Source: Escherichia phage ECML-117. From it: DNA of 64,000 nt. The stretch lies in sequence record JX128258; one strand, 5' to 3'. Shown here piece after piece: positions 3,438 through 39,988 of the stretch. The position numbers and the translations under genes are program-made. The stretch's first letter is position 1; the number at the start of each line of letters is the position of its first letter. The notes below the pieces were generated by a model. That model did not search any database and had not been told where the DNA came from. It saw nothing but the letters and a program-made list of their open reading frames with translations.

Positions 3438-4064
3438 TTAGATAATCTGGAATGTGTAGGACTTGTTGCCGAACTCAAAGGTCAAGCGTCCAGCTTCTTT
3501 AAGCTTCATGCGGAAGCGAATGTGCTTGCTATCCGGTAATCCCAGCGCGGCGAACGCTACGCGGACCGATTTGAACTCGCCTACACCTTCGACCATGACG
3601 CCGTTACGGGTGAGACGCTTTTGCGCCACTTCCTTGTTATCCCAACTTTTTGCAATACCTTCGCTATTCGAACGGCGATGGGAAGGACTGGCAATTTTAT
3701 CCGCGCCAACCGGAGCATCATTCAGGCCGCTTTTAACGAAGGCTTCATATTCTTCGTCGGTCATCGCGTCGAGTTCTTCCTGGGTCGGCTCCGCTTTTTT
3801 AACGACCGCACGCGCTTTGTGCGTTTTTACATCGCTGGACACTTCCTCGCGCGGCTTCGCGTCTGGGATGGGCGATTCGTTGGACGGCTCATCGAGCGCG
3901 TTTAAGGACTCGATTAACGCGATGACGCGAGTCTCAGCGGTGCGACGGTCCGCAAACTTCTTAATCGGTTTTGAGCCGGAGTTAGCGTTATAGAATGCAA
4001 CGAGGTCGGCGGTCTTAGTTGCGATAACGTCGCCGCTAGTAGAGAAACGATTCAAGCTAACCAT
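3438..4064 (-). CDS. hypothetical early protein (208 aa) with acidic/lysine-rich linker
   Basis: ORF with AGGAG RBS; driven by the leftward promoter at 4134-4161; CpG-rich codon usage unlike the structural genes. Confidence 0.6.
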   Translation of the reverse strand: MVSLNRFSTSGDVIATKTADLVAFYNANSGSKPIKKFADRRTAETRVIALIESLNALDEPSNESPIPDAKPREEVSSDVKTHKARAVVKKAEPTQEELDAMTDEEYEAFVKSGLNDAPVGADKIASPSHRRSNSEGIAKSWDNKEVAQKRLTRNGVMVEGVGEFKSVRVAFAALGLPDSKHIRFRMKLKEAGRLTFEFGNKSYTFQII

Positions 4065-4133
4065 AATAAACTCCTAGTTTGGGAGCGGCGTTAACGACCT
4101 ATTCGCTAACTCATCCCGTCCCGATATGAGTAC

Positions 4134-4161
4134 ATTATAATATAGTGTAGAAAAAAGTAAA
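4134..4161 (-). promoter_or_regulatory. sigma70-like promoter (leftward)
   Basis: Minus strand: TTTACT (-35) - 16 nt - TATAAT (-10); -35 embedded in CGAAAAAGTGCTTTACT, the same 17-mer that precedes the promoter at 4604. Confidence 0.5.
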
Positions 4162-4205
4162 GCACTTTTTCGATAAAAATGCGATAAATTATTTTATCTT
4201 TTTTC

Positions 4206-4289: not shown

Positions 4290-4592
4290 ATGACTACTTT
4301 AATCTCTTCCATCCTTACTTACGACGAAGACCGTTTAACCGTTCGCTCTCTTATCGCCGCCGTTAACGCGGAACTAGAATCTAGCGCCATTAAGGTCCGC
4401 GCGGTCGCCTTCATCGGCCTTTCCTTCGACGATATGAAGTACGCCGAACGTAGCGCCATCCGCTTCGCGAAGACCGACGACGAAGCCGTTACCCTTATCG
4501 AGACGGTTACGCCGCGCGGCGAAGCGTTAATTATCGTCGAGTATATCGACGTAGAAGGCGATAAATCTTATAAACATTTTATCGCAGAATGA
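4290..4592 (+). CDS. small acidic protein (100 aa), early gene
   Basis: ATG 4290 with GGGAG RBS; net acidic; N-terminus MTTLISSI resembles the next gene's MITLAAI. Confidence 0.55.
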   Translation: MTTLISSILTYDEDRLTVRSLIAAVNAELESSAIKVRAVAFIGLSFDDMKYAERSAIRFAKTDDEAVTLIETVTPRGEALIIVEYIDVEGDKSYKHFIAE

Positions 4593-4603
4593 CGAAAAAG
4601 TGC

Positions 4604-4632
4604 TTTACTTCTTCGTACACTAAGACTATAAT
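4604..4632 (+). promoter_or_regulatory. sigma70-like promoter (rightward)
   Basis: TTTACT - 17 nt - TATAAT; preceded by CGAAAAAGTG upstream element. Confidence 0.55.
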
Positions 4633-4699
4633 GTTTTATATCGAGAGGGGATGAGGTAGCGAATAGGTCGCTACCCTCCCGACTAACTAGGAGAATATT

Positions 4700-4990
4700 A
4701 TGATTACTTTAGCCGCTATCCGTTCCGCTCGCGTCGAAACTTCCGAAAACTCTAACGTATTTGGCGAAACCTTAGAGAGCGTTTATCTCTCTAACGTAGA
4801 CGCAACTATCGAGTCTATTTATGAGCCGATCAACTTTCTCGACCTTTACAAGTATCGCGACGAGGACATCGTATCCTACCGCGTAACGATTAACGGCTTC
4901 GTTTATACGATCACCGAAATCGGCGGCGAATATATAGCTGTACCGCAACTCGGCGGCGAAGTAACTTACTTTAAAATCGTAAGCCTTTAA
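4700..4990 (+). CDS. small acidic protein (96 aa), early gene
   Basis: AGGAGAA RBS; net acidic; possible paralogue of the 4290 gene. Confidence 0.55.
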   Translation: MITLAAIRSARVETSENSNVFGETLESVYLSNVDATIESIYEPINFLDLYKYRDEDIVSYRVTINGFVYTITEIGGEYIAVPQLGGEVTYFKIVSL

Positions 4991-7111: not shown

Positions 7112-7321
7112 TTATCCATTGTCCACCGCTCCAATATCCTTCAAGAACTTGTGCAAGTCACCTTTCTTATTAAGCTTTTGCATAGTTTTGATATCATCAA
7201 GTGATATGCCTTGATCGCTTTGTTGTTTGTCAATGCAGACAATGCCGCCTTTCTTGGCCTTGATTGTCATGCCTTTGGCTTCAATACTTTTTACGAAATC
7301 GGACAATAATTTAATTTCCAT
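7112..7321 (-). CDS. hypothetical protein (69 aa)
   Basis: GAGGTG RBS before ATG (MEIKLLSD). Confidence 0.45.
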   Translation of the reverse strand: MEIKLLSDFVKSIEAKGMTIKAKKGGIVCIDKQQSDQGISLDDIKTMQKLNKKGDLHKFLKDIGAVDNG

Positions 7322-7402
7322 AATACACCTCACTTGTTAACGTATAATGAGTATAACTTAATAGCGCATAAAGTAAAGGCGCTTTTCAGCGCCTTGAGTG
7401 AA

Positions 7403-9760
7403 TTATTTTGCTGCTTTCAGCGCGGCTATTTCTGCCTTTAGTTCATCTATCTGATCCATCAATGCAAGAATTGCCTCGTGATGGAGTGCTGCTGCAACGC
7501 CAGAAGTGTTTACTGACTTTACGTCATCCAGAATTGACCCATCACGCAGGGTGACTGGTGATGATTTTGTTTCTGATACGGCTTCAGGGAAGTCTTTCTC
7601 TACGTCCTGCGCGATGAATCCGTATCCGATTGAGCCATTTGTCTCCAGGACCCATGTGACCCCTTTGATGTTTCTCATCTTGGAGAGCGGATTACTGATG
7701 CGCTCAATGTTGCTTTTAATTCTTTCGTCAGATGTGCTTCGCCATTCCTGGCATCTTGCTATGCCGTCAGCACCAAATAGATAAGAGGCACTGCTGCCAA
7801 TGCCATTCAAAATGTTAAGTTGCGCACGGTCCAATGCTGTTGTGCCACTTCTGACTCCGCCAAGCATCCAATTCCCGTCATACCAGTCGCCGCCAACGGA
7901 GTTTATATAGCCTCCTTCTGGCACATTCGCGTAGTTGATCATCCTGATGGCATTTCTTTCTGAAGCTGCCACCCCGACTGAATTCAACGGTTGTGCAACG
8001 ACATCCTTGGGCCTTACGTATGCGTCAATGTGTAATGCGCCGTCAGGCCTTAGTGTGCCAATTTGAGTCTCTGCGCTTGGGAAGTACAAAGTCCCAGCTT
8101 GGTTGAATGACCATTCTTGCACCCCATTAGATATCACCGCACCTTGTTCAGATGTTAATCCATCAATTTTTCCGTATGCCTGCAAGAATGCTTGATACGC
8201 AACGTTCGTGCCAATCTTATATTCAGATTTTACACTACCGCCTCTGACAAGCGTTCCGGCTGCAGGTTTTACTGCGTCGCCGTTAATCACACTCCAAGAA
8301 GTATTCGCGGCAACAAATCCACCCGATGCACGAATCACCCAAACGCCAACAAAGTTGCGACCCATGATTTCGTCAGTTGCCGCTCCATAAATCGGGCTTG
8401 ATCTGGATGCATCAATATTTATTGTATTGAGACGCCCCTCCACTGCCCCGCTTCCAACAGGTATGGTGTCGCCGCCGCCTTGGGGGTACAAATCGTTGTT
8501 TGTGTAAAAAGCACCTCGGACGGCTGTGCCAAAGATTTGCGCATAAGTGCCTGCCGATACACCAGCAGCTGAGCCTGTGATGTTTGGTGCAGCAGATTCA
8601 AATATTTGACCGTTCGCAGTGGAGTTGCCGCCATCACCGCGCCCGTAAAGCGCCCGTACAGAGCCTGTCTGGACACCGTTAAGGTCTGGGACACGGAATG
8701 TCGTTGTGCCGTTACCTGAAGAATATTTTGCACGTTTGAACTTATCCGCAAGCCAGTCGGCATCTGCGATGGGTGAAAGCATCTGCGCATACGCCCAAAG
8801 TTCAGGCCAGTCAGCACGGTTTAGCAATTGCCCGTCTGCAACGACTTCGTATGGCTGAATATATGATCTACTATTGCGAAGATGGAAATCGCCAACACCA
8901 TAGTTCATGACACCGTTCATACTTGGGCCAACGGTGCCTGTGTTTACTAAGTTTTCAACCCAACGCTTAGTCGCGGCATCATAATCATTTACAGGGTCGC
9001 CAGCGAGCGGCGTTGATCCTTGTGGACGGATGTTTAGCCACGCCTGAGCATTATCTGCAGAGCCTGTGCCGCCCATTGAAGTTGGAACGATGCTCTGATC
9101 AGCAACAGGGCCGAATCCGAAAGCAGTCTTCATTCCTTGAATGGTGGTCTGCCCAGTTCCGCCATTTGCAATTGGAATCGTGCTTTGCGTACTATACATT
9201 TGCACCCAATCCGACCAGGATGATGAGCCAGCATTGTATAGCCTTTGGTATATGGCGTTGATCCAATAAGGCGTATATCTTTGGACGCAGCTTTCTCCTG
9301 CGACGCCAGTATTGTAAACTTCAAGAATACCAGCTTGTGAGACTGGATAGTTCAGCGCCGATGATGCACCAGCATTTGCTGATTGATGATATTGACCAAA
9401 CCATGAACCAGTCAAGGCATTGAGATTTATTCCGTTAGGAATCTCTCCAAAGTTTCGGACAGTACCCGTCAAAGTTGCGGCAGTGGTTCGAATAGAAAGC
9501 ATGTCGCCAGCCGCCCATGCACGCGCTGCAGTCCCTTCTTGTGCACGCTGCACGGTCAGGACGTTTCCAACAACGGCTGTTACTGTGACGATTTCGAATT
9601 GGAGGCCTGTTGCAGCGTCGACGATTGTCGCCACTACACGCTCGTTTGCGCCCAAGGTCGGAAAGCCCGACCCTGAGCGAATTGTGATTGTGGTGTCTGA
9701 AGTCGTCGTTGGTTGAGCCAGCGCGACCTCAAAGTTGTTTTTGAATATTAGCCTTGGCAT
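7403..9760 (-). CDS. tail fibre/tailspike protein with C-terminal intramolecular chaperone (peptidase S74-like) domain
   Basis: 785 aa; fibre-type motifs (IPIANGGTGQTT; collar-like FRVPDLNGV); C-terminus STSDERIKSNIERIS...GVTWV matches the SDxRxK auto-cleaving chaperone signature. Confidence 0.75.
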   Translation of the reverse strand: MPRLIFKNNFEVALAQPTTTSDTTITIRSGSGFPTLGANERVVATIVDAATGLQFEIVTVTAVVGNVLTVQRAQEGTAARAWAAGDMLSIRTTAATLTGTVRNFGEIPNGINLNALTGSWFGQYHQSANAGASSALNYPVSQAGILEVYNTGVAGESCVQRYTPYWINAIYQRLYNAGSSSWSDWVQMYSTQSTIPIANGGTGQTTIQGMKTAFGFGPVADQSIVPTSMGGTGSADNAQAWLNIRPQGSTPLAGDPVNDYDAATKRWVENLVNTGTVGPSMNGVMNYGVGDFHLRNSRSYIQPYEVVADGQLLNRADWPELWAYAQMLSPIADADWLADKFKRAKYSSGNGTTTFRVPDLNGVQTGSVRALYGRGDGGNSTANGQIFESAAPNITGSAAGVSAGTYAQIFGTAVRGAFYTNNDLYPQGGGDTIPVGSGAVEGRLNTINIDASRSSPIYGAATDEIMGRNFVGVWVIRASGGFVAANTSWSVINGDAVKPAAGTLVRGGSVKSEYKIGTNVAYQAFLQAYGKIDGLTSEQGAVISNGVQEWSFNQAGTLYFPSAETQIGTLRPDGALHIDAYVRPKDVVAQPLNSVGVAASERNAIRMINYANVPEGGYINSVGGDWYDGNWMLGGVRSGTTALDRAQLNILNGIGSSASYLFGADGIARCQEWRSTSDERIKSNIERISNPLSKMRNIKGVTWVLETNGSIGYGFIAQDVEKDFPEAVSETKSSPVTLRDGSILDDVKSVNTSGVAAALHHEAILALMDQIDELKAEIAALKAAK

Positions 9761-9798
9761 TTTACGGTCCTCGTTTTGTCGACAACCGTATTATAACC

Positions 9799-10140
9799 TT
9801 AATTTCTTTTGAGAGGAATATGACGGTGGCTGCCATTATCTGGTTTAATAATGAGCATAAAAACGATTAGAAAGATGATGGCTGATATACTTAATTCAAT
9901 CAGCGCGGCCTGAGATATGGATTGATCTTCGTGATACTGCTTTTGCATTTCTGCTTTCTTCTGAGCGCAAACTTCAGGCGATATATAATCACCTTTTGAG
10001 TTGCCATAATAAATCTCGCCATTCTCAGAAATAAGTCTGCCGCAAATATCCGTATCGGCCTTTGCGCTTGACATCATAATAACAGTGCCGATGATAGCAG
10101 CAATTGTCCAGATTAGCAGTTGTGATAAAGTATTGTTCAT
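9799..10140 (-). CDS. small membrane/periplasmic protein (113 aa)
   Basis: Start at internal ATG with AGAGG RBS; N-terminal signal/TM, two Cys in the central domain, C-terminal TM. Confidence 0.5.
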   Translation of the reverse strand: MNNTLSQLLIWTIAAIIGTVIMMSSAKADTDICGRLISENGEIYYGNSKGDYISPEVCAQKKAEMQKQYHEDQSISQAALIELSISAIIFLIVFMLIIKPDNGSHRHIPLKRN

Positions 10141-10570: not shown

Positions 10571-10781
10571 TTTCTTTCCACTCCACAAATGTGCTGCCAC
10601 TTGTTTCTCTATTTAGCAGGTATCTGCCGCGCATTCCATGAAGGCTGAATTCAACCGTCGATGGATTAGATTTTGAAAGCCACATCGCTTGACCGTCGAA
10701 TGGTCCGCCAACGCATGTGTATTTGGCTTTTGGCTCACTCCTTTTGGGCCGTTTTGCCCGCTCTTTGATTGATAGTCTCAT
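10560..10781 (-). CDS. hypothetical protein (73 aa)
   Basis: ORF-track ORF in a tightly packed leftward operon. Confidence 0.4.
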   Translation of the reverse strand: MRLSIKERAKRPKRSEPKAKYTCVGGPFDGQAMWLSKSNPSTVEFSLHGMRGRYLLNRETSGSTFVEWKENGK

Positions 10782-10996
10782 CAGTCTTCACCTTGAGATT
10801 CAAGACAAGTAAGAACAAGCCATGTCATCGGAAGAATCAAAACCAGAGAAATAAGGGACCAGATGGACCAGCACAAGATGACAGACTTGAATGTGTGAAC
10901 GTCGCCAAACGCAGCAGTGAAACAAAATCCCATCACGAAAGCAAGCGCGGTGGAGTGGTTATCAATGGCTTTGATGGCACGGTCGATGAGTTTCAT
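10781..10996 (-). CDS. small membrane protein (71 aa), holin-like candidate
   Basis: Two predicted hydrophobic helices and a charged C-terminus. Confidence 0.4.
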   Translation of the reverse strand: MKLIDRAIKAIDNHSTALAFVMGFCFTAAFGDVHTFKSVILCWSIWSLISLVLILPMTWLVLTCLESQGED

Positions 10997-11085: not shown

Positions 11086-11316
11086 TTAGTGAGAAGACAC
11101 GACTAATGTGCCGCTTCCTTTCGCGAAAATCTCAACACCTGGCGGGATTGTGACCGTGCCAACCACTGCGATTCCGATCAACTTGTCATCGGCTTTTTCT
11201 TCGAAACAGATCTCTGCGCCACCGCCGCGAACTTGAATAAGTGCGCCTGATACGTTTTCAGCAACAGAAAGAACGGAAGTGTAAGATGGAGTGAGTTGAA
11301 TATTTACTAGGGCCAT
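11086..11316 (-). CDS. hypothetical protein (76 aa)
   Basis: AGGAG RBS; first gene of the leftward operon. Confidence 0.45.
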   Translation of the reverse strand: MALVNIQLTPSYTSVLSVAENVSGALIQVRGGGAEICFEEKADDKLIGIAVVGTVTIPPGVEIFAKGSGTLVVSSH

Positions 11317-11330
11317 GATTTACTCCTGAT

Positions 11331-11357
11331 AAAAAAATGGCCAGAAAGAATCTGGCC
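11331..11357 (-). terminator. intrinsic-terminator-like hairpin in the leader of the leftward operon
   Basis: Minus strand: GGCCAGA-TTCTT-TCTGGCC hairpin followed by T7, ending about 6 nt before the RBS of gene 11086..11316. Confidence 0.4.
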
Positions 11358-11434: not shown

Positions 11435-12895
11435 ATGAATAAAATATTAACACATAATTGGAAAGTCATGTACCAGTTGAATCCTGCTTTAAGAGAAGTC
11501 TGGAAGACGAAAGCGCGATACAAAGTAATATACGGTGGTCGTGCATCTTCCAAATCGCATGATGCCGCTGGTTTTGCTATTTATTTGGCGGCAAACTTTA
11601 AATTAAAATTCCTTTGCGTTCGACAATTCCAGAACAAGATTTCTGAATCAGTATATACGCTATTAAAAGACAAAATAGAAATTTCTGATTTCAAAGATGA
11701 GTTCAACTTATTAAAGAACTCCATTGAACACAAAAGAACAAAATCTGAATTCTTATTTTACGGTATCGCACGCAATGTTGACGAAATCAAATCAACAGAA
11801 GGCGTTGATGTTCTTTGGCTTGAAGAAGCGCACGCACTTACTGAAGAGCAGTGGGACATCATTGAGCCGACAATTCGTAAGGAAGGGTCAGAAATATGGA
11901 TCATATTTAACCCTGATGAAGAGGCTGATTTCGTCTACCAGAACTTTGTTATGCGACCGCCTAAAAATGCCATCGTTAAGAAGATTAACTGGCAGGACAA
12001 TCCATTCTTGTCGCAAACAATGCTGGACGTTATCGCTGGCATGTATGAGCGCGACCCGAAAAAGGCAGAACACGTTTATGGCGGAGTACCGAAGACAGGC
12101 GGCGACAAGTCGGTCATCAACCGTGCATTCGTCAAGGCCGCGCTAAACCTCCACAAACACCCTACGTTGGGATGGAGCTTGTCAGGGTCTAACCGTATAG
12201 GCTTTGACGTGGCAGACGACGGCGACGACTTAAACGCCACAGCATTTGTCACGGGCAACGTATTGCGCGGCATCAAGACATGGGAAGGTCTGGAAGATGA
12301 ATTGCTTAAGTCCGCAAGCGGAGTTTGGAAAGATGCATTAACATTCGGCGCATCAATTACCTATGACGCCATCGGTGTTGGTGCATTTGCTGGTTCAAAA
12401 TTTGATGAGCTTAATGAGTATGCAATCCATGAAAATCCAACATTCCCAAGAATCGAATTTAATGCGTTCAACGCGCAAGGTGCTGTTGATGATCCTGATG
12501 ACGTCTTCCTTGAGTTACCACACGTTGAAATACTCAATAAAGACCATTTCGCAAACATAAAAGCGCAAAAATGGACTGAGATTGCCGAACGATTCAGGAA
12601 GACATATGAGTATGCAACAGGGCAGGCCGTATACCCGACTGATGAGCTGATTTCCATCGACACAGACGGCATTCCAGAACTTGGGATTCCTGCTTGGTCT
12701 GCGGAAGAAATTGAGACATTTCTTTTTGAGATGTCAGCGCCGCGCAAAGACACGTCTGTGCTTGGTAAGTTTAAAGTTGAATCGAAAAAGGATATGGCAA
12801 AGCGTGGAGTCAAATCGCCTAACAAAGCGGACGCAGCAATCATGGCGTTGATGAAACCAATTGTTGCAGCATCCGGCTTCTTCTCTAACCTTTAA
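11435..12895 (+). CDS. terminase large subunit
   Basis: Walker A GGRASSKS, Walker B VDVLWLEEAH, C-terminal nuclease acidic motif FDVADDGDD; alternative start 11468. Confidence 0.9.
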   Translation: MNKILTHNWKVMYQLNPALREVWKTKARYKVIYGGRASSKSHDAAGFAIYLAANFKLKFLCVRQFQNKISESVYTLLKDKIEISDFKDEFNLLKNSIEHKRTKSEFLFYGIARNVDEIKSTEGVDVLWLEEAHALTEEQWDIIEPTIRKEGSEIWIIFNPDEEADFVYQNFVMRPPKNAIVKKINWQDNPFLSQTMLDVIAGMYERDPKKAEHVYGGVPKTGGDKSVINRAFVKAALNLHKHPTLGWSLSGSNRIGFDVADDGDDLNATAFVTGNVLRGIKTWEGLEDELLKSASGVWKDALTFGASITYDAIGVGAFAGSKFDELNEYAIHENPTFPRIEFNAFNAQGAVDDPDDVFLELPHVEILNKDHFANIKAQKWTEIAERFRKTYEYATGQAVYPTDELISIDTDGIPELGIPAWSAEEIETFLFEMSAPRKDTSVLGKFKVESKKDMAKRGVKSPNKADAAIMALMKPIVAASGFFSNL

Positions 12896-32798: not shown

Positions 32799-33527
32799 AT
32801 GATGGCAGAAAAGTTAACCCAACTTACAAGCCCCAACCAAACTGACAAATCAAGTATGTTTGCCGCGCTGCAGGGAATGCTGGACCGTGGCAAGTATACC
32901 ACTGACGGCATGATTCCTGCACAAGTAATATCTTATGACCGCAAACAGAATTTAGCAGTCATAAAGCCTGTTATTCATTTCGTAAGTCTTGATGATAAGC
33001 CAGTGGAGCGTCAACCTTTGGTGTCAATTCCGGTACTGGCAATCGGCGGCGGCGGCTTCGTGATCAACTTCCCTTTGAAGGAAGGGGACTTGGGCTGGAT
33101 ATTCGCTGGCGACCGAGAGTTGTCGACATTCCTTGAAGAATTGAAGCCGACTGCGCCTACCAATGGCCGTGTAAAAACTTTCGCTGATGGACTGTTCATA
33201 CCGGATGTATTCCGAAAATACACCATAAGCGGAGAGGATGCAGGGTCAATGGTAATTCAATCCCTCAGCGGCGCTGTGAGAATTGCACTAAGCGATGACT
33301 CAATAAACATAACTGCGTCTGCTGGAGTAAACGTCAAGACCCCGATAACCACTATCGATCAACAATTGATAGTAAATGGAAAGGCAACATTCAATGGTGG
33401 GATAGAAGGCAAAGAAGGAACGACGGCAACGCTTCCGACTGGCACAACGGTCGGCGGCATTGATGTATCCACTCACGGGCATATCGGTAACGGGCCTGGA
33501 AACAGAACTGGGAATATGATAGAATGA
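32799..33527 (+). CDS. baseplate spike/assembly protein (V-like, putative)
   Basis: AGGAG RBS then ATG 32799; 242 aa; position before the J-like gene. Confidence 0.4.
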   Translation: MMAEKLTQLTSPNQTDKSSMFAALQGMLDRGKYTTDGMIPAQVISYDRKQNLAVIKPVIHFVSLDDKPVERQPLVSIPVLAIGGGGFVINFPLKEGDLGWIFAGDRELSTFLEELKPTAPTNGRVKTFADGLFIPDVFRKYTISGEDAGSMVIQSLSGAVRIALSDDSINITASAGVNVKTPITTIDQQLIVNGKATFNGGIEGKEGTTATLPTGTTVGGIDVSTHGHIGNGPGNRTGNMIE

Positions 33528-34795
33528 GTGCACAATATTCTTACATAGTAAGCACTGGTGTGATCACCATTGACACGGCAGATTTATTGGCTGATGTTCA
33601 AGGTGAATGGATTGAGTCTTTAGGGGTCGGGCTTGATGTTGATGCTTCGACGCCGCAAGGCACGCTAATCGCAACAGAGACATTGGCAAGAACTTCAGTG
33701 ATGAAGAACAATGCCGAATTGGGAAGCCTCATCAACCCTAACTACTCATATGGAGTATACCTTGATGCAATCGCGGCGCTTCTTGGCATCGAGCGCACAA
33801 AGAATGTAAGCACAATGTTGAAAGGTGTGACTGCAGAGGGAACGCCTCTGCTGGAAATTCCTGCTGGAAGTCTTCTTACTGATTCAAATGGTACATACTG
33901 GTATGTGCTGGAAGACGTTCAAATCACTTCGACTGGCAAGACAAGTAATATGACTCTTGCGTCAAAAGATTATGGATCATTCACTGTTGCGCCTGATGAA
34001 GAGTTTACAGTGGTGCAAGGTTATGACGTCATCGGATGGTCAAGAACTTATTCAACGTCGGCAACAACGACCGTGCCAGGAACACAATACATGAGCGACG
34101 GAGCATTAAAGGCCGCTCGCGTTAAGCGTCTTTACCAGCAGGGCATTGCATCACTTGGTGCCATTCGCGCTCGCGCCATGTCGGTCGACGGTGTAGAATC
34201 TGTGATGGTCGTGGAGAACGACACAGGAGCGCCTGGAACGGTGCGCGGCATCACCTTCTCAACGCCTAACGGTGTTTGGGTGTGCGCAAGCGGAACATTT
34301 GACAAGCAAGTTTTTGCGGAGACGATATTCAAGGCGAAGATGGGCGGTCAACCTTGGGACTTTGGCGCTGCTAATCAAGGTGATCCGGTAAACTCTCCTG
34401 ATGGAATCGAAGTGGTCGATGCAGAATCACAGCTGTCTTATTTCGTCAAATTCAACAATGCAGTGATATATGATTTGTATGTTGATATAACCGTTTCAAG
34501 AGGAACGGCTACCGCTGATGCTGAGTCTATCATTGCCGCTGTGCTGAATTACGGCAATGGCAATTTTAACGGTGAGCAGGGATATACAGTAGGTCAATCT
34601 CAATCTTCTTTTGAAATCGCTTCAGCAGTATCCTGTGAATATCCAGGACTTTATATCAAAGATTGCAAAATTGCAGCAGTCAAAAGCGGACAGGCAGCGC
34701 CAACTTATCCTTCCGATTATGGCAGCGAGTGGATTGCCAATCCATGGGATAAGGCCAATACTATGCGCGGCTTCATCAACGTTAAATTTGTGTGA
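33524..34795 (+). CDS. baseplate J-like protein (putative)
   Basis: 423 aa; synteny and size. Confidence 0.4.
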   Translation: MSAQYSYIVSTGVITIDTADLLADVQGEWIESLGVGLDVDASTPQGTLIATETLARTSVMKNNAELGSLINPNYSYGVYLDAIAALLGIERTKNVSTMLKGVTAEGTPLLEIPAGSLLTDSNGTYWYVLEDVQITSTGKTSNMTLASKDYGSFTVAPDEEFTVVQGYDVIGWSRTYSTSATTTVPGTQYMSDGALKAARVKRLYQQGIASLGAIRARAMSVDGVESVMVVENDTGAPGTVRGITFSTPNGVWVCASGTFDKQVFAETIFKAKMGGQPWDFGAANQGDPVNSPDGIEVVDAESQLSYFVKFNNAVIYDLYVDITVSRGTATADAESIIAAVLNYGNGNFNGEQGYTVGQSQSSFEIASAVSCEYPGLYIKDCKIAAVKSGQAAPTYPSDYGSEWIANPWDKANTMRGFINVKFV

Positions 34796-34801
34796 GGAAC
34801 T

Positions 34802-37540
34802 ATGCAAAAGTTTGACACAAACCTGTTGCAAAACCTTAAGTGGATGCAGAACAACGCGCCAAACATCACATCTTTGGTTCAGAAGAAGAGTGACTGGTAT
34901 GAGCGATATCAAGATCAGTTTTGGATTGACTGGTACAAGAACATATTCAACATTGATACTTGTGATGCAATGGGCATCTATATTTGGTGTGACATACTAT
35001 GCATACCAAGGGATTTTGTTGACTTAAGCAACTATGAGCACAACTGGGCATTTGGACCCACACGCGACAACTTCGAAGGGCCGGACAATATCGGCGGCAA
35101 CTTCTTTGGTGCTGGCGGAAAGGTTGTGAAAAACATCGAAGAAGCCCGCATCCTTCTGAAGCTTCGTTATCTGACGCTTACAAGTGATGGCCGCATAGAA
35201 AGCATCAACCGTATGCTTAAGTGGATTTTCAACCGTGGAGAAGATTGGGATTACTCTTCATCGCGCTACGCATATGTGACAGATAATACTCAAGGCGCGG
35301 TGTCTTCTTCTGAAGCAACAAACGGCTCATTCCTTCTGTACGACTGGCAGGGGTCAACTGAGATTCAGCACGATTATAAACAAGTTCTTTTGAGCCACGG
35401 CAACAACGCAGGACTTACCATAAGTGGGGTGGCAGGGACCGTTTCGCGAATGGCACACCCAGACTGGTATTCATGGGGTAATGGTTCCGGCGCTGGTATT
35501 GTCGGCGGTGATACACGACAATATGGCGGCCCTGACTATTACGGCCAACTGTGCGGTGACTACCCAGGAGAGGCCATAGAGAATTTCGCCAACGCAGTAC
35601 GGGTCATCAAGACCGCTTCCAGCGGCGAGCCTGTGTATTCTTTGGCCAATAATCCAAGCGCCAAATCTATTGCTCTTCCTTCTCAGGCTGGTGTAAACGT
35701 TTGCTATAGCTTCTACATAAAAGTGCTTTCTGAAAACGTGGCTTCTGTTTCCGTAACAGAGAACAGTGATGCATCGAGTAATGGAAAACTTTTCGACCCA
35801 GTGACTGGGCAGTTCAACCTTGACTCTTCTTTGAGTTATTTCATCACAGGCAAGTTCGACGGTGTGAGAAGGGAATCAAACCGTGGTGGCATCAAGGCAA
35901 TCGGCGGCGATTGGTACAGAATCTGGATTGTAGAGCAAACTGCAAACGCGACGGCTGGGGTGAAAACAAGCTTTTCAATTGAGTTGAAAGCAACTGCCGC
36001 TGGATCAACCCAGACTCGCGAATTGCCTGAAGGGTCTGATGCGCTTCTTTTTGGATACTCCATTTGTGTTTGCGACCCTGTTCAAAATCCTAATGGACCT
36101 GAGCCTTATTTCTATGGGACTCAAAATCCTCCTGCAGATGGAACGGCAATCCTGTCTGTTACGGCAGGAACGCTCAACAACATATCTTGCGCAAACGGTC
36201 CGTTGACAACAAGGGATGGCGTGGTAGGTGAATCATTCATGCAGCCTGGTTCATCGCTTGCATACTCTGGTTCAATCGACGGCTACCCGTACCCAGGAAA
36301 CGCAACATTGATTGCAGAGACTGACGGCATCAGACGCTCATGGAACGTTAGCCGATTGGACGGCGTACCGCCGCCGCCGACCGCTGACTATTACATGGAA
36401 TATGTCATCGGGCCTTATTTCGCCAACAACTTATCCGACAACTTTAAGACGCTAGTTGGCGACAGGAATGAAGGATTCTTGCCAGCAAATGCCGGAATAC
36501 GTTGGCAGCTTTACCAAGAAGTCGCAGACTTATCTGATATTGATTTGACTGTCAGCAACATAACAGACACGCGAGTAGGATTCGAAACGGAAGGTGTCGC
36601 ATGGATTAACACTGACGGCATCATCAGAGTTGGCGGCATAAACGAGTGGCCGTTGAACAACTTCAAAGGTGTTATACGACAGCTTGAATCTTTGAAAGGT
36701 GTGAACCAAGTTATCGACGGCGCACTTGTCAACGACTATTCAATCTCAAAAGCATCAAGAGATGACTTTGGTCGTGAAATCCCACGTGCCGCGATCACAA
36801 ACTACTGGCGATACACACAACCCAATGACGGCACATCTTTTGGCAATATCGTCAAGGACGGAGATAACACGGTAACGGCGACGCCAATCAGCGGTGTGCC
36901 CAACCAGTTCCCATCATTCAAGCTTTCCGCTACAATAGGGACTGTGCCAGCATCCGGCTATGCACGTGCTGTACTTGCTACTAAATACACTGGCAACCTG
37001 ACTGGTCCTTTGTCATTTATCGCAATAGTTAAAAACAACACGGTAAACGGTCAAAAACTTTTCGTAACCGTACCGGATGGTATGGGCGGCTATATCCCTA
37101 AATTCTACAGCATAGGCGCAGGTGATTTGCAACGTATCGAAATTGACCTTGCCGCTGAGATTGTTGCAGGAACGACTTGGGATGGTTCGACAGGTGGAAT
37201 CAGCATTGGTTTGATATCAGGGAAAGACTTGCCGACCGAAGTTGGTACGACTCTTGAACTTGATATTTTAAGCTTGATGCTTGTTTCTGGTAATACGATG
37301 AATGCGCTTGCGATTTCAACAAGCGAAGACTTTGCAAAGAAAACTGCAACTTCTATATACATCAAAAACCCAGGGTCACTGGCGACTGGAGTTCAATTGA
37401 TAGCTTCGAATGGGGATGTTGTAGCGACAGTAAACTTTCCAAGAAGTGCTGCTGGCGGTTATGTTTCAAGCATGAATATAACTGACTTAACTGGTGATTG
37501 GGCATCAACCCTTTTATCAAAAATTAAATACATCGTGTAG
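34802..37540 (+). CDS. large baseplate wedge/tail fibre protein
   Basis: 912 aa, Gly/Ser/Thr/Asn-rich beta-type composition; precedes the distal fibre gene. Confidence 0.5.
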   Translation: MQKFDTNLLQNLKWMQNNAPNITSLVQKKSDWYERYQDQFWIDWYKNIFNIDTCDAMGIYIWCDILCIPRDFVDLSNYEHNWAFGPTRDNFEGPDNIGGNFFGAGGKVVKNIEEARILLKLRYLTLTSDGRIESINRMLKWIFNRGEDWDYSSSRYAYVTDNTQGAVSSSEATNGSFLLYDWQGSTEIQHDYKQVLLSHGNNAGLTISGVAGTVSRMAHPDWYSWGNGSGAGIVGGDTRQYGGPDYYGQLCGDYPGEAIENFANAVRVIKTASSGEPVYSLANNPSAKSIALPSQAGVNVCYSFYIKVLSENVASVSVTENSDASSNGKLFDPVTGQFNLDSSLSYFITGKFDGVRRESNRGGIKAIGGDWYRIWIVEQTANATAGVKTSFSIELKATAAGSTQTRELPEGSDALLFGYSICVCDPVQNPNGPEPYFYGTQNPPADGTAILSVTAGTLNNISCANGPLTTRDGVVGESFMQPGSSLAYSGSIDGYPYPGNATLIAETDGIRRSWNVSRLDGVPPPPTADYYMEYVIGPYFANNLSDNFKTLVGDRNEGFLPANAGIRWQLYQEVADLSDIDLTVSNITDTRVGFETEGVAWINTDGIIRVGGINEWPLNNFKGVIRQLESLKGVNQVIDGALVNDYSISKASRDDFGREIPRAAITNYWRYTQPNDGTSFGNIVKDGDNTVTATPISGVPNQFPSFKLSATIGTVPASGYARAVLATKYTGNLTGPLSFIAIVKNNTVNGQKLFVTVPDGMGGYIPKFYSIGAGDLQRIEIDLAAEIVAGTTWDGSTGGISIGLISGKDLPTEVGTTLELDILSLMLVSGNTMNALAISTSEDFAKKTATSIYIKNPGSLATGVQLIASNGDVVATVNFPRSAAGGYVSSMNITDLTGDWASTLLSKIKYIV

Positions 37541-37550
37541 AGGAACGGCA

Positions 37551-39335
37551 ATGCCAACACTTATTAACAGACCTTTCGCGCAAAGCGGTGATGTATCCGT
37601 GGTGCCGGATGCAAGCCCAAGCGGTTATGTGAACTTCCAGCGCGGCTACACTCCTGACTATGCGCTTGCGCTGGAGGCCGGAAACGTCGCCGCGAAAGCT
37701 GTTGAGCGCGAATCGATGAACTGGTTGCTGAATTTGATTACAGACAACCTTATGTTTATTCAAGATCATGGCGCTCAACAATATTTCTCTTCTGACTTGA
37801 AGCCGGATGGATACCCGAAAAACGCCATTGTTGTCAGCAACTCTGGAACGCCTTCAGCACCTGAGTGGCGCATCTTTCAAAGCGTGGTCGACGGCAACAC
37901 AAGCGCCGTACCAGCTAACGGAGAAACGGAATCTTGGCAGGAATTAACACTGCCCAGCGAAGCGCGAAAATACATTCCTATGCCTGCTGGCGGCGATGCG
38001 CAAAACCCGTACTTCGTTCGCGGATTGATTTCAAGCTTTGTTGACTTCGATAATATTACGACTTCCACAACTATCGTCATTCAATCCGATGCCGTCGCCG
38101 CTCTTTGCTCTAACATCCCGAATGCGGTTGGCGCAACGAAGGTTGCAGGTCGACTGCAGGTCTGCGCTTGGCAGGTCAATGCGCAGACCTTTGCTTTGCA
38201 GCAATATACATCAATGAATGGCTATTTGTTTACTCGCTCTTATACTTCTGGTGCTTGGAGTGCTTGGATTCAAAATGCCACTGTTCAAGACGTGCAAATC
38301 GGAACTCCAAACCTTGCATCTGGTAAAGGCGCGCAAGATATAATCCTCACCGTTCCAGCAGGGTATTCATGGCCGCCTTCTGCGGGTAGTCGTTTGACCA
38401 TCGTCAATGACGTGACTACTACCGGACCTGTCACCGTGACCATTGGTGTAAACAAAGTTGCCGTTCTTGGATTCGACGGCGGCGAGTTACCAGCTGGCGC
38501 TATCGTAGGCTTGTTGCCATTCACCATCATTTATGACGGCGCTGTTTGGCGTCTCCTTCAGGCATTTGGCGCGGCGCAAATCGGCGTTGATGCTACTGAG
38601 CCGCAACAGTTTGTTACAAAGCGCCAACTCGATGCTTTGGCTGCGAAGTTGATCACTATGGGTGACGTATTCGAAGTCGGTGAGACTCGATTCCTTACCA
38701 ACGGAACCAACCCAAATACTAAACTGGGCGCTTACGGTCAGGTATGGACACGACTGCCTGATAACATGGTCATTAGAACATCTGGAACGTCGCGGAACGG
38801 TCTTGCCACTGGCGGCGCGGACTCTGTCACCCTTACCGCTGCCATGCTCCCTCTTCACAACCACAGCGTAAACATAACTACGCGTCAGAGCGGCCCATGG
38901 TCCAATACTACTGGAGATGCTGGAAATCACAACCACACAGGCGATACCAGTCAGAACGGCGCTCACTCTCATGGTATGGATGCAGCAGGAAATCATTACC
39001 ATGACAGCGGTTGGGGAGAGGCGTATGCGGACCAAGCGCGTTACGGAGTTTATGACGGTACTCACAACAACCTTGGGAGTGCAAGGTCTGATTATGATAA
39101 CTACAAATACAACACTTCAACTAATGGCAACCACGTCCATAATATTCAATCTTCTGGATCACACACTCATGGTTTGAATATAAATTACGCTGGCAATCAC
39201 AGCCATGGCTATACCCTTCCCGCTCACACTCACGATGTGGTCGGTAATACTGGCGATGCAGGGCAGTCGGTGCCAACGGCTGTTGCGACTTTGCCGCGAT
39301 ACGTTGTTTTGAATGGCTGGTACAGAAGCGCATAA
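37551..39335 (+). CDS. tail fibre protein with C-terminal HxH metal-binding repeats
   Basis: 594 aa from ATG 37551 (GAGGAA RBS); C-terminal GNHNHTGD, AHSHG, GNHYHD, GNHVHN, SHTHG, GNHSHG, AHTHD motifs as in receptor-binding fibre tips. Confidence 0.6.
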   Translation: MPTLINRPFAQSGDVSVVPDASPSGYVNFQRGYTPDYALALEAGNVAAKAVERESMNWLLNLITDNLMFIQDHGAQQYFSSDLKPDGYPKNAIVVSNSGTPSAPEWRIFQSVVDGNTSAVPANGETESWQELTLPSEARKYIPMPAGGDAQNPYFVRGLISSFVDFDNITTSTTIVIQSDAVAALCSNIPNAVGATKVAGRLQVCAWQVNAQTFALQQYTSMNGYLFTRSYTSGAWSAWIQNATVQDVQIGTPNLASGKGAQDIILTVPAGYSWPPSAGSRLTIVNDVTTTGPVTVTIGVNKVAVLGFDGGELPAGAIVGLLPFTIIYDGAVWRLLQAFGAAQIGVDATEPQQFVTKRQLDALAAKLITMGDVFEVGETRFLTNGTNPNTKLGAYGQVWTRLPDNMVIRTSGTSRNGLATGGADSVTLTAAMLPLHNHSVNITTRQSGPWSNTTGDAGNHNHTGDTSQNGAHSHGMDAAGNHYHDSGWGEAYADQARYGVYDGTHNNLGSARSDYDNYKYNTSTNGNHVHNIQSSGSHTHGLNINYAGNHSHGYTLPAHTHDVVGNTGDAGQSVPTAVATLPRYVVLNGWYRSA

Positions 39336-39343
39336 GGTGATTT

Positions 39344-39988
39344 ATGATTAATGCAAACGTAATATCTAAAGGGACCGGATGCAGCATGGATGTTGCAGAG
39401 AAATGGGTGGACCCTTTCAAGCAGGCTTGTGAGCACTACGGAATCAAAAGCAAGAATGCCATCGCGGCATTCCTTGCAAATGTAGGAGTAGAGACAGGCA
39501 GCTTGAAGACATTTGTGGAAAATCTCAATTACTCCGCTCAAGGTCTTGCCAATACATGGCCTAGTCGTTACAGCGTCAACGGTCGCTCTGGAAGCGCCCC
39601 GAACTCATTGGCCCTGTCTATTGCCCGTAAACCTGTGGAAATCGCCAATAATACATATGCAAACCGCATGGGCAACGGTTCAGTAGCATCTGGCGACGGT
39701 TGGAAGTACCGTGGCCGTGGTGCCATTCAGCTGACTGGTAAGGCGAACTATGCGGAATATACGCGCCAATCAGGTTATGATGCATTGAACAATCCTGATA
39801 TTCTGACTGAACCAAAATACATCGCTGACAGCGCGGCATGGTTCTTTAAGAATAGCGGCTGTATTCCTCTTGCGGATGCAGGAAATTTTGATTCAACCGT
39901 TAAGCGGATTAACGGGGCCGCGCCGAACGCAGCAAACCACGGTGAGTTGCGAAGAAAGCGTTACAAAGATGCACTAGCAGTTATGTAA
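39344..39988 (+). CDS. endolysin, glycoside hydrolase family 19-like
   Basis: AAFLANVGVETGSL and YRGRGAIQLTGKANY match GH19 lysozyme/chitinase catalytic-region signatures. Confidence 0.75.
   Translation: MINANVISKGTGCSMDVAEKWVDPFKQACEHYGIKSKNAIAAFLANVGVETGSLKTFVENLNYSAQGLANTWPSRYSVNGRSGSAPNSLALSIARKPVEIANNTYANRMGNGSVASGDGWKYRGRGAIQLTGKANYAEYTRQSGYDALNNPDILTEPKYIADSAAWFFKNSGCIPLADAGNFDSTVKRINGAAPNAANHGELRRKRYKDALAVM

Follow-up and report, generated by a model that had tools for sequence, protein, structure and literature searches.

The 785-amino acid protein encoded on the minus strand at positions 7403-9760 of the 64,000-nucleotide stretch of DNA analysed here (the window) is, with a probability of about 0.88, the variable lateral fibre of a Wifcevirus phage. 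It has the sequence of gp24 from ECML-117, a myovirus of that genus applied against E. coli O157:H7. An exact-sequence look-up matched all 785 residues to that protein (PI34_gp24, AFO10457.1 / YP_009101025.1), annotated as "phage tail fiber protein", and PHROG 6921, "tail fiber protein", matches its full length (E=1e-271); an NCBIfam scan of it gave no match. Over 14.3 kb the window is also 100% identical to a 65-kb contig, from an NCBI assembly, on which the gene is present. The gene is real, and the evidence supports the view that its product is a second receptor-binding tail fibre, encoded apart from the first, and the genome's swappable host-range element. The gene is already known -- annotated since 2012, found in virion preparations in 2020, its architecture published in 2025 -- and as a discovery it adds little; its interest is as the putative host-range determinant of a phage genus in commercial use against E. 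coli O157:H7. The features discussed below are these, in positions of the window:

7403..9760, minus strand: variable ("T-shaped") tail fibre gene, 785 aa plus stop, an ATG-to-stop ORF to which 18 published virion-preparation peptides map
9768..9772, minus strand: Shine-Dalgarno GAGGA, 7 nt before the fibre ATG, read from the sequence
9461..9760, minus strand: N-terminal anchor module, aa 1-100, genus-conserved, presumed to serve in baseplate attachment
9065..9460, minus strand: pyocin-knob-like domain and linker, aa 101-232, from R-pyocin fibre matches, AF2 and Foldseek
8192..9064, minus strand: central module, aa 233-523, the Gp12-like RBD1 of the literature, with a DT57C LtfA match
8363..8575, minus strand: hypervariable insert in RBD1, aa 396-466, 20-50% identical to every compared homologue
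7730..8191, minus strand: distal tip, aa 524-677, the T5-like RBD2 of the literature, ending at the cleavage serine S677
7406..7729, minus strand: intramolecular chaperone (IMC), aa 678-785, PF13884, motif S677-D-E-R-I-K682
7376..7395, minus strand: terminator-like hairpin directly 3' of the fibre stop, 8 bp, -13.6 kcal/mol, z -2.5
11086..11316, minus strand: first ORF of the leftward unit, 76 aa, PI34_30 in ECML-117, a small virion-associated protein
34802-37540: 912-aa DUF2612 baseplate-wedge protein, N-terminus homologous to E217 gp45 and Pa193 gp46
37551..39335, plus strand: conserved tail-module fibre, N-terminus homologous to the Pbunavirus fibre, C-terminus gp37-like

The fibre gene belongs to a leftward unit divergent from the terminase gene. 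It is on the opposite strand from the tail module, with 25,042 nt between it and the start of the 34802-39335 block, as the original prediction had it (about 25 kb). It is only 38 nt from the ORF upstream, so that co-transcription is likely, and the annotators of phage WFC place a terminator at the same site as the hairpin. The locus is found at the same position in all of the Wifcevirus genomes examined (vB_Eco4M-7, Bas98, Bas99, FEC19, TH35, WFC and Ro157lw), and no paralogue of its anchor, middle or tip was found elsewhere in the window. Its neighbours had been described as small membrane-protein genes, which holds for two of the five or so small ORFs upstream; only these have TM-like segments. 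The first ORF of the unit, with no Pfam or PHROG match, is itself virion-associated: its peptides GGGAEICFEEK and GSGTLVVSSH account for 49 PSMs in CsCl-purified ECML-117, and its orthologue for 390 PSMs in vB_Eco4M-7.

The 34802-39335 block itself had been taken to hold fibre genes, and this is right for one of its two products. The 37551..39335 product matches 9b45_2, "gp47 Tail fiber" (E 7e-32), with homology beginning at M20 of the listed ORF, is 91-98.5% identical across Wifcevirus, and carries in its C-terminus eight HxH motifs, read from the translation, like the T4 gp37 needle. The other product is not a fibre; it is the baseplate-wedge protein, whose Pbunavirus homologues are shorter by about 400 aa and match it over residues 4-186 only. 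No Pbunavirus homologue of the 785-aa fibre was seen in PDB searches. The same two-fibre arrangement has been described by Humolli et al. 2025 (PLoS Biol, PMC11990801), who place at this locus the variable "T-shaped" Wifcevirus fibre, beside a conserved fibre with a gp37-like tip. On their AlphaFold-Multimer models the variable fibre runs from a conserved baseplate anchor at the N-terminus through RBD1, which is Gp12-like, and RBD2, which is T5-like, to the IMC.

Mass spectrometry of CsCl-purified ECML-117 (PMC7048862) yielded 18 peptides and 109 PSMs of the fibre (listed as PI34_24), and all 18 map within aa 8-669 of the window protein, as expected of the processed N-terminal fragment for which virion proteomics had been proposed as a check. 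The fibre is also detected in CsCl-purified vB_Eco4M-7 (PMC7048862), so that it is present, rather than absent, in preparations of both phages; by protein score it ranks first in vB_Eco4M-7 (7387, with 2013 PSMs) and third in ECML-117. The same datasets include non-structural proteins such as DNA helicase and endolysin (PMC7048862), which means that the preparations are not pure virions, and the abundance of chaperone peptides in the vB_Eco4M-7 sample suggests some unprocessed or free fibre. On these grounds one might suppose that the protein is made and forms no working adsorption organelle, its presence reflecting soluble carry-over or a decoy. We regard this as scarcely credible, given the rank of its scores, a strongly conserved anchor beside a diversifying tip, as is characteristic of a functional receptor-binding protein, and the O-antigen dependence of all four Wifcevirus isolates in BASEL, the T-shaped fibre being the only variable one (PMC11990801).

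A domain search confirms the S74 chaperone and SDERIK motif that had been predicted at the C-terminus. Pfam Peptidase_S74 (PF13884) matches aa 677-728 (E=1.4e-12, 48.1 bits against a cut-off of 22), the motif, aa 677-682, lies at window 7715-7732, and S677, D678 and K682 are invariant in both alignments, of 70 and 60 homologues. The S74 domain is above threshold in 60/60 homologues, and the C-terminus gives profile matches to the IMCs of S16 gp37 (6f45), MYRF (7dc3) and GA-1 (3gud). In an AF2 monomer model aa 681-785 have a pLDDT of 73-92, save for one block at 63, and end in a helix, 752-784. By sequence, then, with a C-terminal profile match and a Ser followed five residues downstream by a Lys, this region is an S74 IMC (MEROPS S74). 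It resembles those of endosialidase, T5 pb1 and S16 gp37 in its C-terminal place, its Ser/Lys(+5) dyad and its terminal helix, and differs from that of endosialidase in its passenger, which is a fibre tip and not a sialidase.

Self-cleavage after S677 is suggested by the distal fibre gp13 of the Gordonclarkvirinae podovirus EP335, which is cleaved after Ser621, as determined by ESI-MS, and whose GFP fusion binds O157/O26 cells (PMC8217332); Ser621 aligns with S677 inside an identical STSDERIK motif. None of the 109 fibre PSMs of ECML-117 lies after S677, a pattern compatible with release of the IMC. In vB_Eco4M-7, six chaperone peptides make up 500 of 2011 fibre PSMs, so that chaperone release is not universal or unassembled protein was in the preparation; retention and release may differ among close homologues. 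That some fibre alleles keep the chaperone on the virion, uncleaved or non-covalently held, for example capping the tip until displaced, would explain why the IMC gives 25% of fibre spectra in vB_Eco4M-7 and none in ECML-117, though we think it quite improbable.

Upstream of the chaperone the domains differ in how firmly they can be assigned. The anchor, aa 1-100, is 94-100% identical among the ten Wifcevirus fibres compared. The fibre in PDB 8jov (chain 1; E 1.7e-7, aa 4-97) has a similar N-terminus, as do fibres and spikes from phages of Ralstonia, Burkholderia, Klebsiella, Yersinia and Pseudomonas; following Humolli 2025 (PMC11990801), the anchor is presumed to attach the fibre to the baseplate. 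The region aa 101-191 matches the R2/R1 pyocin fibres 6ct8, 6cl6 and 6cl5 by both phmmer and profile searches, with phmmer E values for aa 101-190 of 9e-7 and 2e-6 against PA0620 / PALES_06171 and a profile E of 1.8e-7. Its model (aa 103-192) has a pLDDT of 72-89 and aligns with 6ct8 in Foldseek at probability 1.0 and an rmsd of 3.4 A over 102 columns, and NCBI names the homologues "pyocin knob domain-containing S74 family peptidase". Sequence and fold similarity together thus predict an R-type pyocin fibre knob.

The central module, aa 233-523, matches residues 539-831 of DT57C LtfA (E 1e-115), a part of LtfA left unmodelled in the PDB entry, and numerous positions from aa 251 to 508 are invariant in the homologue alignments. 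The "collar-like" motif of the original prediction amounts to a partial Pfam Collar match at aa 345-362, below threshold at 17.8 bits against a cut-off of 24; Collar reaches E<0.01 in only 11/60 homologues. A comparison by hhalign of the fibre family profile with T4 gp12 was negative (probability 0.2), and a PDB profile search with the family reached neither T4 gp12 nor T5 pb1. The AF2 monomer, built from a 70-sequence alignment, has a mean pLDDT of 52 and is poor outside the knob and IMC -- below 50 across most of aa 215-442 and 468-494 -- which makes Foldseek matches in the receptor-binding domains unreliable; that of the distal tip to the T5 pb1 tip (4uw7), in a low-confidence part of the model, is weak in any case (E 0.019, probability 0.38). 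The Gp12-like and T5-like folds are accordingly taken here from the literature, the former (SSF88874 / tail collar fold) from PMC11990801 and PMC8217332, and aa 233-395 are 85-91% identical to Bas98/Bas99, for which the RBD1 assignment is published.

Some of the annotation of relatives might suggest an enzymatic tailspike or depolymerase, such as an endosialidase, that does not simply bind capsule or O-antigen but breaks it down. The SP13 orthologue bears the product name "endo-N-acetylneuraminidase", endosialidases are where S74 chaperones were first described, and in the related phage Kyle an "EPS depolymerase" is annotated in the same genomic slot as the fibre. The SP13 name, however, goes back to what the Pfam family is called, searches of Pfam, NCBIfam and PDB gave no sialidase, pectate-lyase or other catalytic domain, S74 and the sub-threshold Collar are the only Pfam matches across the 60 homologues, and the best structural and sequence relatives -- DT57C LtfA, the R-pyocin fibre, S16 gp37 and T5 pb1 -- are non-enzymatic; an enzymatic role is therefore very unlikely. 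The Kyle protein was also considered as a sharer of the fibre anchor and was set aside, with no similarity (E 0.17) and no Pfam match.

The question of how the fibre is held on the virion carries more weight. Its closest relatives outside Wifcevirus are distal members of branched fibres (PMC4728585), and it may be asked whether it too branches off another fibre or adaptor rather than docking on the baseplate, in the manner of LtfB on LtfA in DT57C or of gp13 on gp12 in EP335. It might then be borne by the conserved fibre, by the 912-aa wedge protein through the long extension at the C-terminus of the latter, or by the 76-aa protein of the leftward unit; the wedge protein is so much longer than its homologues, and the small protein is present in virion preparations. 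The resemblance to such fibres is real: over aa 235-772 the window protein is 78% identical to FFH1 ORF131, of a T5-like branched lateral fibre, and it shares with EP335 gp13 its tip (82-96%), its IMC (83%) and the cleavage site. The N-terminus of EP335 gp13 is nevertheless different (20-36% identity where aa 1-232 can be aligned), and gp13 is thought to hang from the proximal fibre gp12, while the window fibre has its own anchor and pyocin-knob module. DT57C LtfA and FFH1 ORF131, parts of siphovirus L-shaped fibres borne on LtfC or a proximal fibre, likewise lack the aa 1-232 module. Across the genus this extra 232-aa module is strongly conserved, and it also stands at the head of directly tail-attached fibres in unrelated phages, the 18 chains in PDB 8jov among them; direct baseplate attachment is what Humolli et al. 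predict (PMC11990801). Branching, with whichever partner, thus seems rather unlikely, and direct docking of the fibre on the baseplate is preferred.

Comparison of the locus among related phages, another of the checks proposed, shows the same position and a conserved N-terminus, with divergence from about aa 396. Residues 1-395 share 94-99% identity with phage WFC; from about aa 396 on, identity falls to 18-48% even with near-identical genomes (TH35, WFC), yet is 74-96% with fibres of unrelated T5-like and Gordonclarkvirinae phages. The flanks of the hypervariable insert are 62-99% identical in the comparison that gives the insert itself so low a value. Nucleotide identity is back at 90-95% at window 7442-7308 in TH35, Bas98, Bas99 and FEC19, so that the terminator hairpin and the last ~13 fibre codons form a conserved right-hand homology arm of a variable cassette. 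At the level of sequence, the fibre is shown to be a mosaic. The original prediction of a swappable host-range module is well matched by this contrast between anchor and tip, in a genus where the other fibre is conserved.

The nearest published counterpart is Gp114 of ManiWeber/Bas99 (PMC11990801), at the orthologous locus left of the terminase gene and with the same domain order; aa 1-100 are 97% and aa 233-395 are 89% identical. Its RBD1 insert, RBD2 and IMC are of another allelic type (18-35% identity), the host is O157 for the window fibre and O16 for Bas99, and the T-shape of the window protein is predicted only, from its relatives. The tip is only 16-25% identical to those of the O16-dependent Wifcevirus Bas98/Bas99. 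Against O157/O26-binding EP335 gp13 the identity is 82% over aa 524-600 and 96% over aa 601-676, the distal half, and O157 O-antigen is most likely what the fibre binds. This assignment is tentative, since tips of the O16-dependent Bas89 and the O108-host SA126VB are 71-74% identical to it and that of the O157 phage vB_Eco4M-7 is 72-75%. Humolli et al. found RBD2 phylogeny and host recognition to be uncorrelated (PMC11990801). An O157 specificity of RBD2 argued from co-occurrence among O157 phages was downgraded, the O16- and O108-host phages having similar tips.

A possible course of events can be put together from these elements. Expression, to judge by the layout, Shine-Dalgarno and hairpin, would proceed from the leftward unit, divergent from the terminase gene, and end at the terminator after the fibre stop. 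Three chains would trimerise, nucleated as in other members of the family by the C-terminal S74 chaperone, and each would cut itself after Ser677 by means of the Ser677/Lys682 dyad, freeing the 108-aa chaperone; the residues are present, cleavage at the same site has been shown in EP335 gp13, and chaperone peptides are absent from ECML-117. The mature 677-aa trimer would dock on the baseplate by its genus-conserved N-terminal 100 residues and display the knob-like domain, a Gp12-like binding domain with its hypervariable insert, and a T5-like tip. The fibre would most likely bind O157 O-antigen for initial, reversible adsorption. For the conserved gp37-like fibre of 37551-39335 the literature suggests an invariant, more mechanical role. 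Codons ~396-772 would form an exchangeable cassette between conserved homology arms, exchanged, as the mosaic indicates, with T5-like siphovirus and Gordonclarkvirinae podovirus fibres and presumably setting the host range. These bounds mark where engineers could exchange specificity, and the near-identity of the tip to that of O157-binding EP335 gp13 points them to the donor.

The ORF running from 9760 to 7403 on the minus strand has 785 codons and an ATG start, with a GAGGA ribosome-binding site 7 nt 5' of the ATG and a gap of 38 nt to the preceding ORF; 3' of its stop lies a stable hairpin (7395-7376; 8 bp, -13.6 kcal/mol, z = -2.5), at the same place as a terminator annotated in the Wifcevirus relative WFC. 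Every residue of its product is the same as in AFO10457.1 / YP_009101025.1, "phage tail fiber protein [Escherichia phage ECML-117]", and PHROG 6921 ("tail fiber protein") covers it end to end (E 1e-271). ECML-117 is a Wifcevirus that was investigated together with the O157 phage vB_Eco4M-7 (PMC7048862), and over its first 25 kb the window shows 91-97% identity to Wifcevirus genomes, including TH35, WFH, WFC, Ro157lw and vB_Eco4M-7. The feature is already known, as a published member of the variable T-shaped fibre group of Wifcevirus (Humolli et al., 2025; PMC11990801). The fibre ORF, S74 chaperone domain and SDERIK motif of the original prediction are all confirmed: Peptidase_S74 is found at aa 677-728 (Pfam E 1.4e-12, 48 bits, cut-off 22), SDERIK begins at residue 677, and the chaperone is bona fide. 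The collar-like motif also described there is a hint only, a partial Pfam Collar match at aa 345-362 that scores 17.8 bits, under the cut-off of 24.

The first 100 amino acids are 94-100% identical in all Wifcevirus fibres compared; similar N-termini are found on the 439-aa fibre of PDB 8jov (18 chains) and on fibres or spikes of Ralstonia, Burkholderia, Klebsiella, Yersinia and Pseudomonas phages. AA 101-232 include a pyocin-knob-like domain, with sequence matches to 6ct8 and 6cl6, pLDDT 72-89, and a Foldseek probability of 1.0 at an rmsd of 3.4 A. The central region, aa 233-523 (RBD1 in the literature), matches residues 539-831 of LtfA from the T5-like phage DT57C (E 1e-115), a segment absent from the deposited PDB model; it has many invariant residues among homologues and encloses a hypervariable insert, aa 396-466, with 20-50% identity to all homologues compared. 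The remaining parts are:

aa 524-677, distal tip (RBD2)
aa 678-785, chaperone, modelled with a helix at its end (752-784)

The reported Gp12-like and T5-like folds of aa 233-677 were not reproduced, the monomer model having pLDDT <50 through most of both regions; hhalign of the fibre family against T4 gp12 was negative, and Foldseek against T5 pb1 gave a weak match (E 0.019) on a low-confidence model.

An orthologous fibre gene occupies the same place in every relative examined, and the identities change abruptly along it. The WFC fibre is 94-99% identical through aa 395 and 18-48% beyond, except at aa 467-523 (69%). No genome is closer on the whole than TH35 (95.9% nt), whose fibre shares 18-33% identity from aa 524 onward. 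Over that same distal stretch, gp13 of the podovirus EP335 is 82% (aa 524-600) and 96% (aa 601-676) identical, and ORF131 of the T5-like siphovirus FFH1 74-86% over both segments. Nucleotide homology to other Wifcevirus genomes ends near 8620 and returns at 7442, taking in the last ~13 codons and the terminator; the ...EAEIAALKAAK terminus is common to all Wifcevirus fibres, whatever their chaperone type, whereas the FFH1 and EP335 fibres lack it. This looks like a recombination cassette between conserved arms, a pattern of nucleotide and segment identities that supports the swappable host-range module originally proposed.

In EP335 gp13, 11.8 kDa is lost by cleavage after Ser621, as determined by ESI-MS (PMC8217332); its STSDERIK site is identical, and Ser621 aligns to S677 of the ECML-117 fibre, a residue that, like D678 and K682, does not vary among 70 homologues. 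Published peptide lists (PMC7048862, Supplementary Tables S2 and S3), obtained from phages purified on CsCl, were mapped onto the fibres, virion proteomics having been named as a check on the processed fragment. The ECML-117 fibre was found, N-terminal to S677 only: its 18 peptides, with 109 spectrum matches (PSMs), are confined to aa 8-669, and the chaperone (aa 678-785; window 7406-7729) accounts for 0 of the 109. These data agree with chaperone release. Those for vB_Eco4M-7, whose fibre gp27 (L001:6001-8340 in the compared locus) is 79% identical, are at odds with it unless free or unprocessed protein was in the sample: of the 2011 PSMs, 500 (25%) come from six peptides in the chaperone. 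Either the chaperone is retained or uncleaved in that phage, or the preparation, which contained non-structural proteins, was contaminated.

EP335 gp13 shows strong binding to O157 cells and weak binding to O26 cells (PMC8217332), and the closest full-length Wifcevirus fibres are those of the O157 phages vB_Eco4M-7, FEC19 and Ro157lw. Because aa 601-676 are near-identical to EP335 gp13, the sequence weakly suggests that the tip may bind the O157 O-antigen; the suggestion is weak since the tips of Bas89 (O16-dependent) and SA126VB (O108 host) match about as well as that of vB_Eco4M-7, at 71-74% identity. Humolli et al. could not tell which of the two RBDs matters (PMC11990801). One orthologue is annotated as an endosialidase; that reading was rejected for this fibre since Pfam found no catalytic domain in it or in 60 homologues.

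The original prediction placed the fibre genes of the main tail module at 34802-39335. This holds for the second part of that interval; the first encodes a baseplate protein:

33524-34795, Baseplate_J wedge protein
34802-37540 (+), DUF2612 baseplate wedge protein, 912 aa, of which only the first ~186 residues resemble E217 gp45 and Pa193 gp46
37494-39335 (+), true tail-module fibre, N-terminus homologous to the Pa193 gp47 fibre
39344-39988, GH19 endolysin, downstream of the fibre

In Pbunavirus the homologues of the DUF2612 protein are ~500 aa long, and the match is confined to residues 4-186; the remaining ~700 aa are specific to this lineage and may be where the extra fibre docks. The tail-module fibre, which probably starts at M20 (37551), has eight HxH motifs within its last ~140 residues and is 91-98.5% identical across Wifcevirus.

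The variable fibre gene belongs to a leftward set of small ORFs diverging from the rightward terminase large-subunit gene (11435-12895). It had been described as lying among small membrane-protein genes, which is true of two upstream ORFs with TM-like segments and not of the others:

9799-10140 (-), 113-aa ORF directly upstream of the fibre, with a hydrophobic signal-like stretch at its N-terminus (…MMSSAKA/DTD), a TM segment at its C-terminus, and two cysteines
10781-10996 (-), 71-aa ORF, TM-like segment(s) at aa 35-67, one long or two short
11086-11316 (-), 76-aa ORF PI34_30, a small virion-associated protein; first of the unit, adjoining the terminase gene

The 113-aa product is a candidate lysis, spanin-like or superinfection-exclusion protein; its orthologue in Ro157lw is 99% identical, according to the vB_Eco4M-7 annotation table. 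The 71-aa ORF has no family match and could be a holin candidate, since no obvious holin gene adjoins the endolysin (39344-39988). PI34_30 has no match in Pfam or PHROG; its peptides were seen in CsCl-purified ECML-117 (49 PSMs) and those of its orthologue in vB_Eco4M-7 (390 PSMs), so the unit has the look of a small operon for structural and accessory proteins, and not of a random site for a fibre gene. The related Pantoea phage Kyle has in the same leftward terminase-side slot a 611-aa gene (L015:5701-7536) annotated "EPS depolymerase", which bears no recognisable resemblance to the Wifcevirus fibre and has no match in Pfam; this annotation hints that the position may generally house a receptor-binding protein gene in PB1-like enterobacterial phages.

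The divergent gap that separates the first leftward ORF from the terminase gene contains a terminator-like hairpin (11339-11357 (-); 7 bp, T-run); this is an odd location for a leftward-strand terminator. Gene content 3' of the fibre terminator (7112-7333 (-) and 7120-7321) differs among Wifcevirus genomes, homology being broken between ~7313 and ~7120 in several; PI34_23, the 69-aa product of this region, gave a weak MS signal (3 PSMs). Further left, 4058-4194 and 4572-4717 show 75-80% identity to secondary positions in related loci, some inverted, which suggests a putative repeated element in the left arm.
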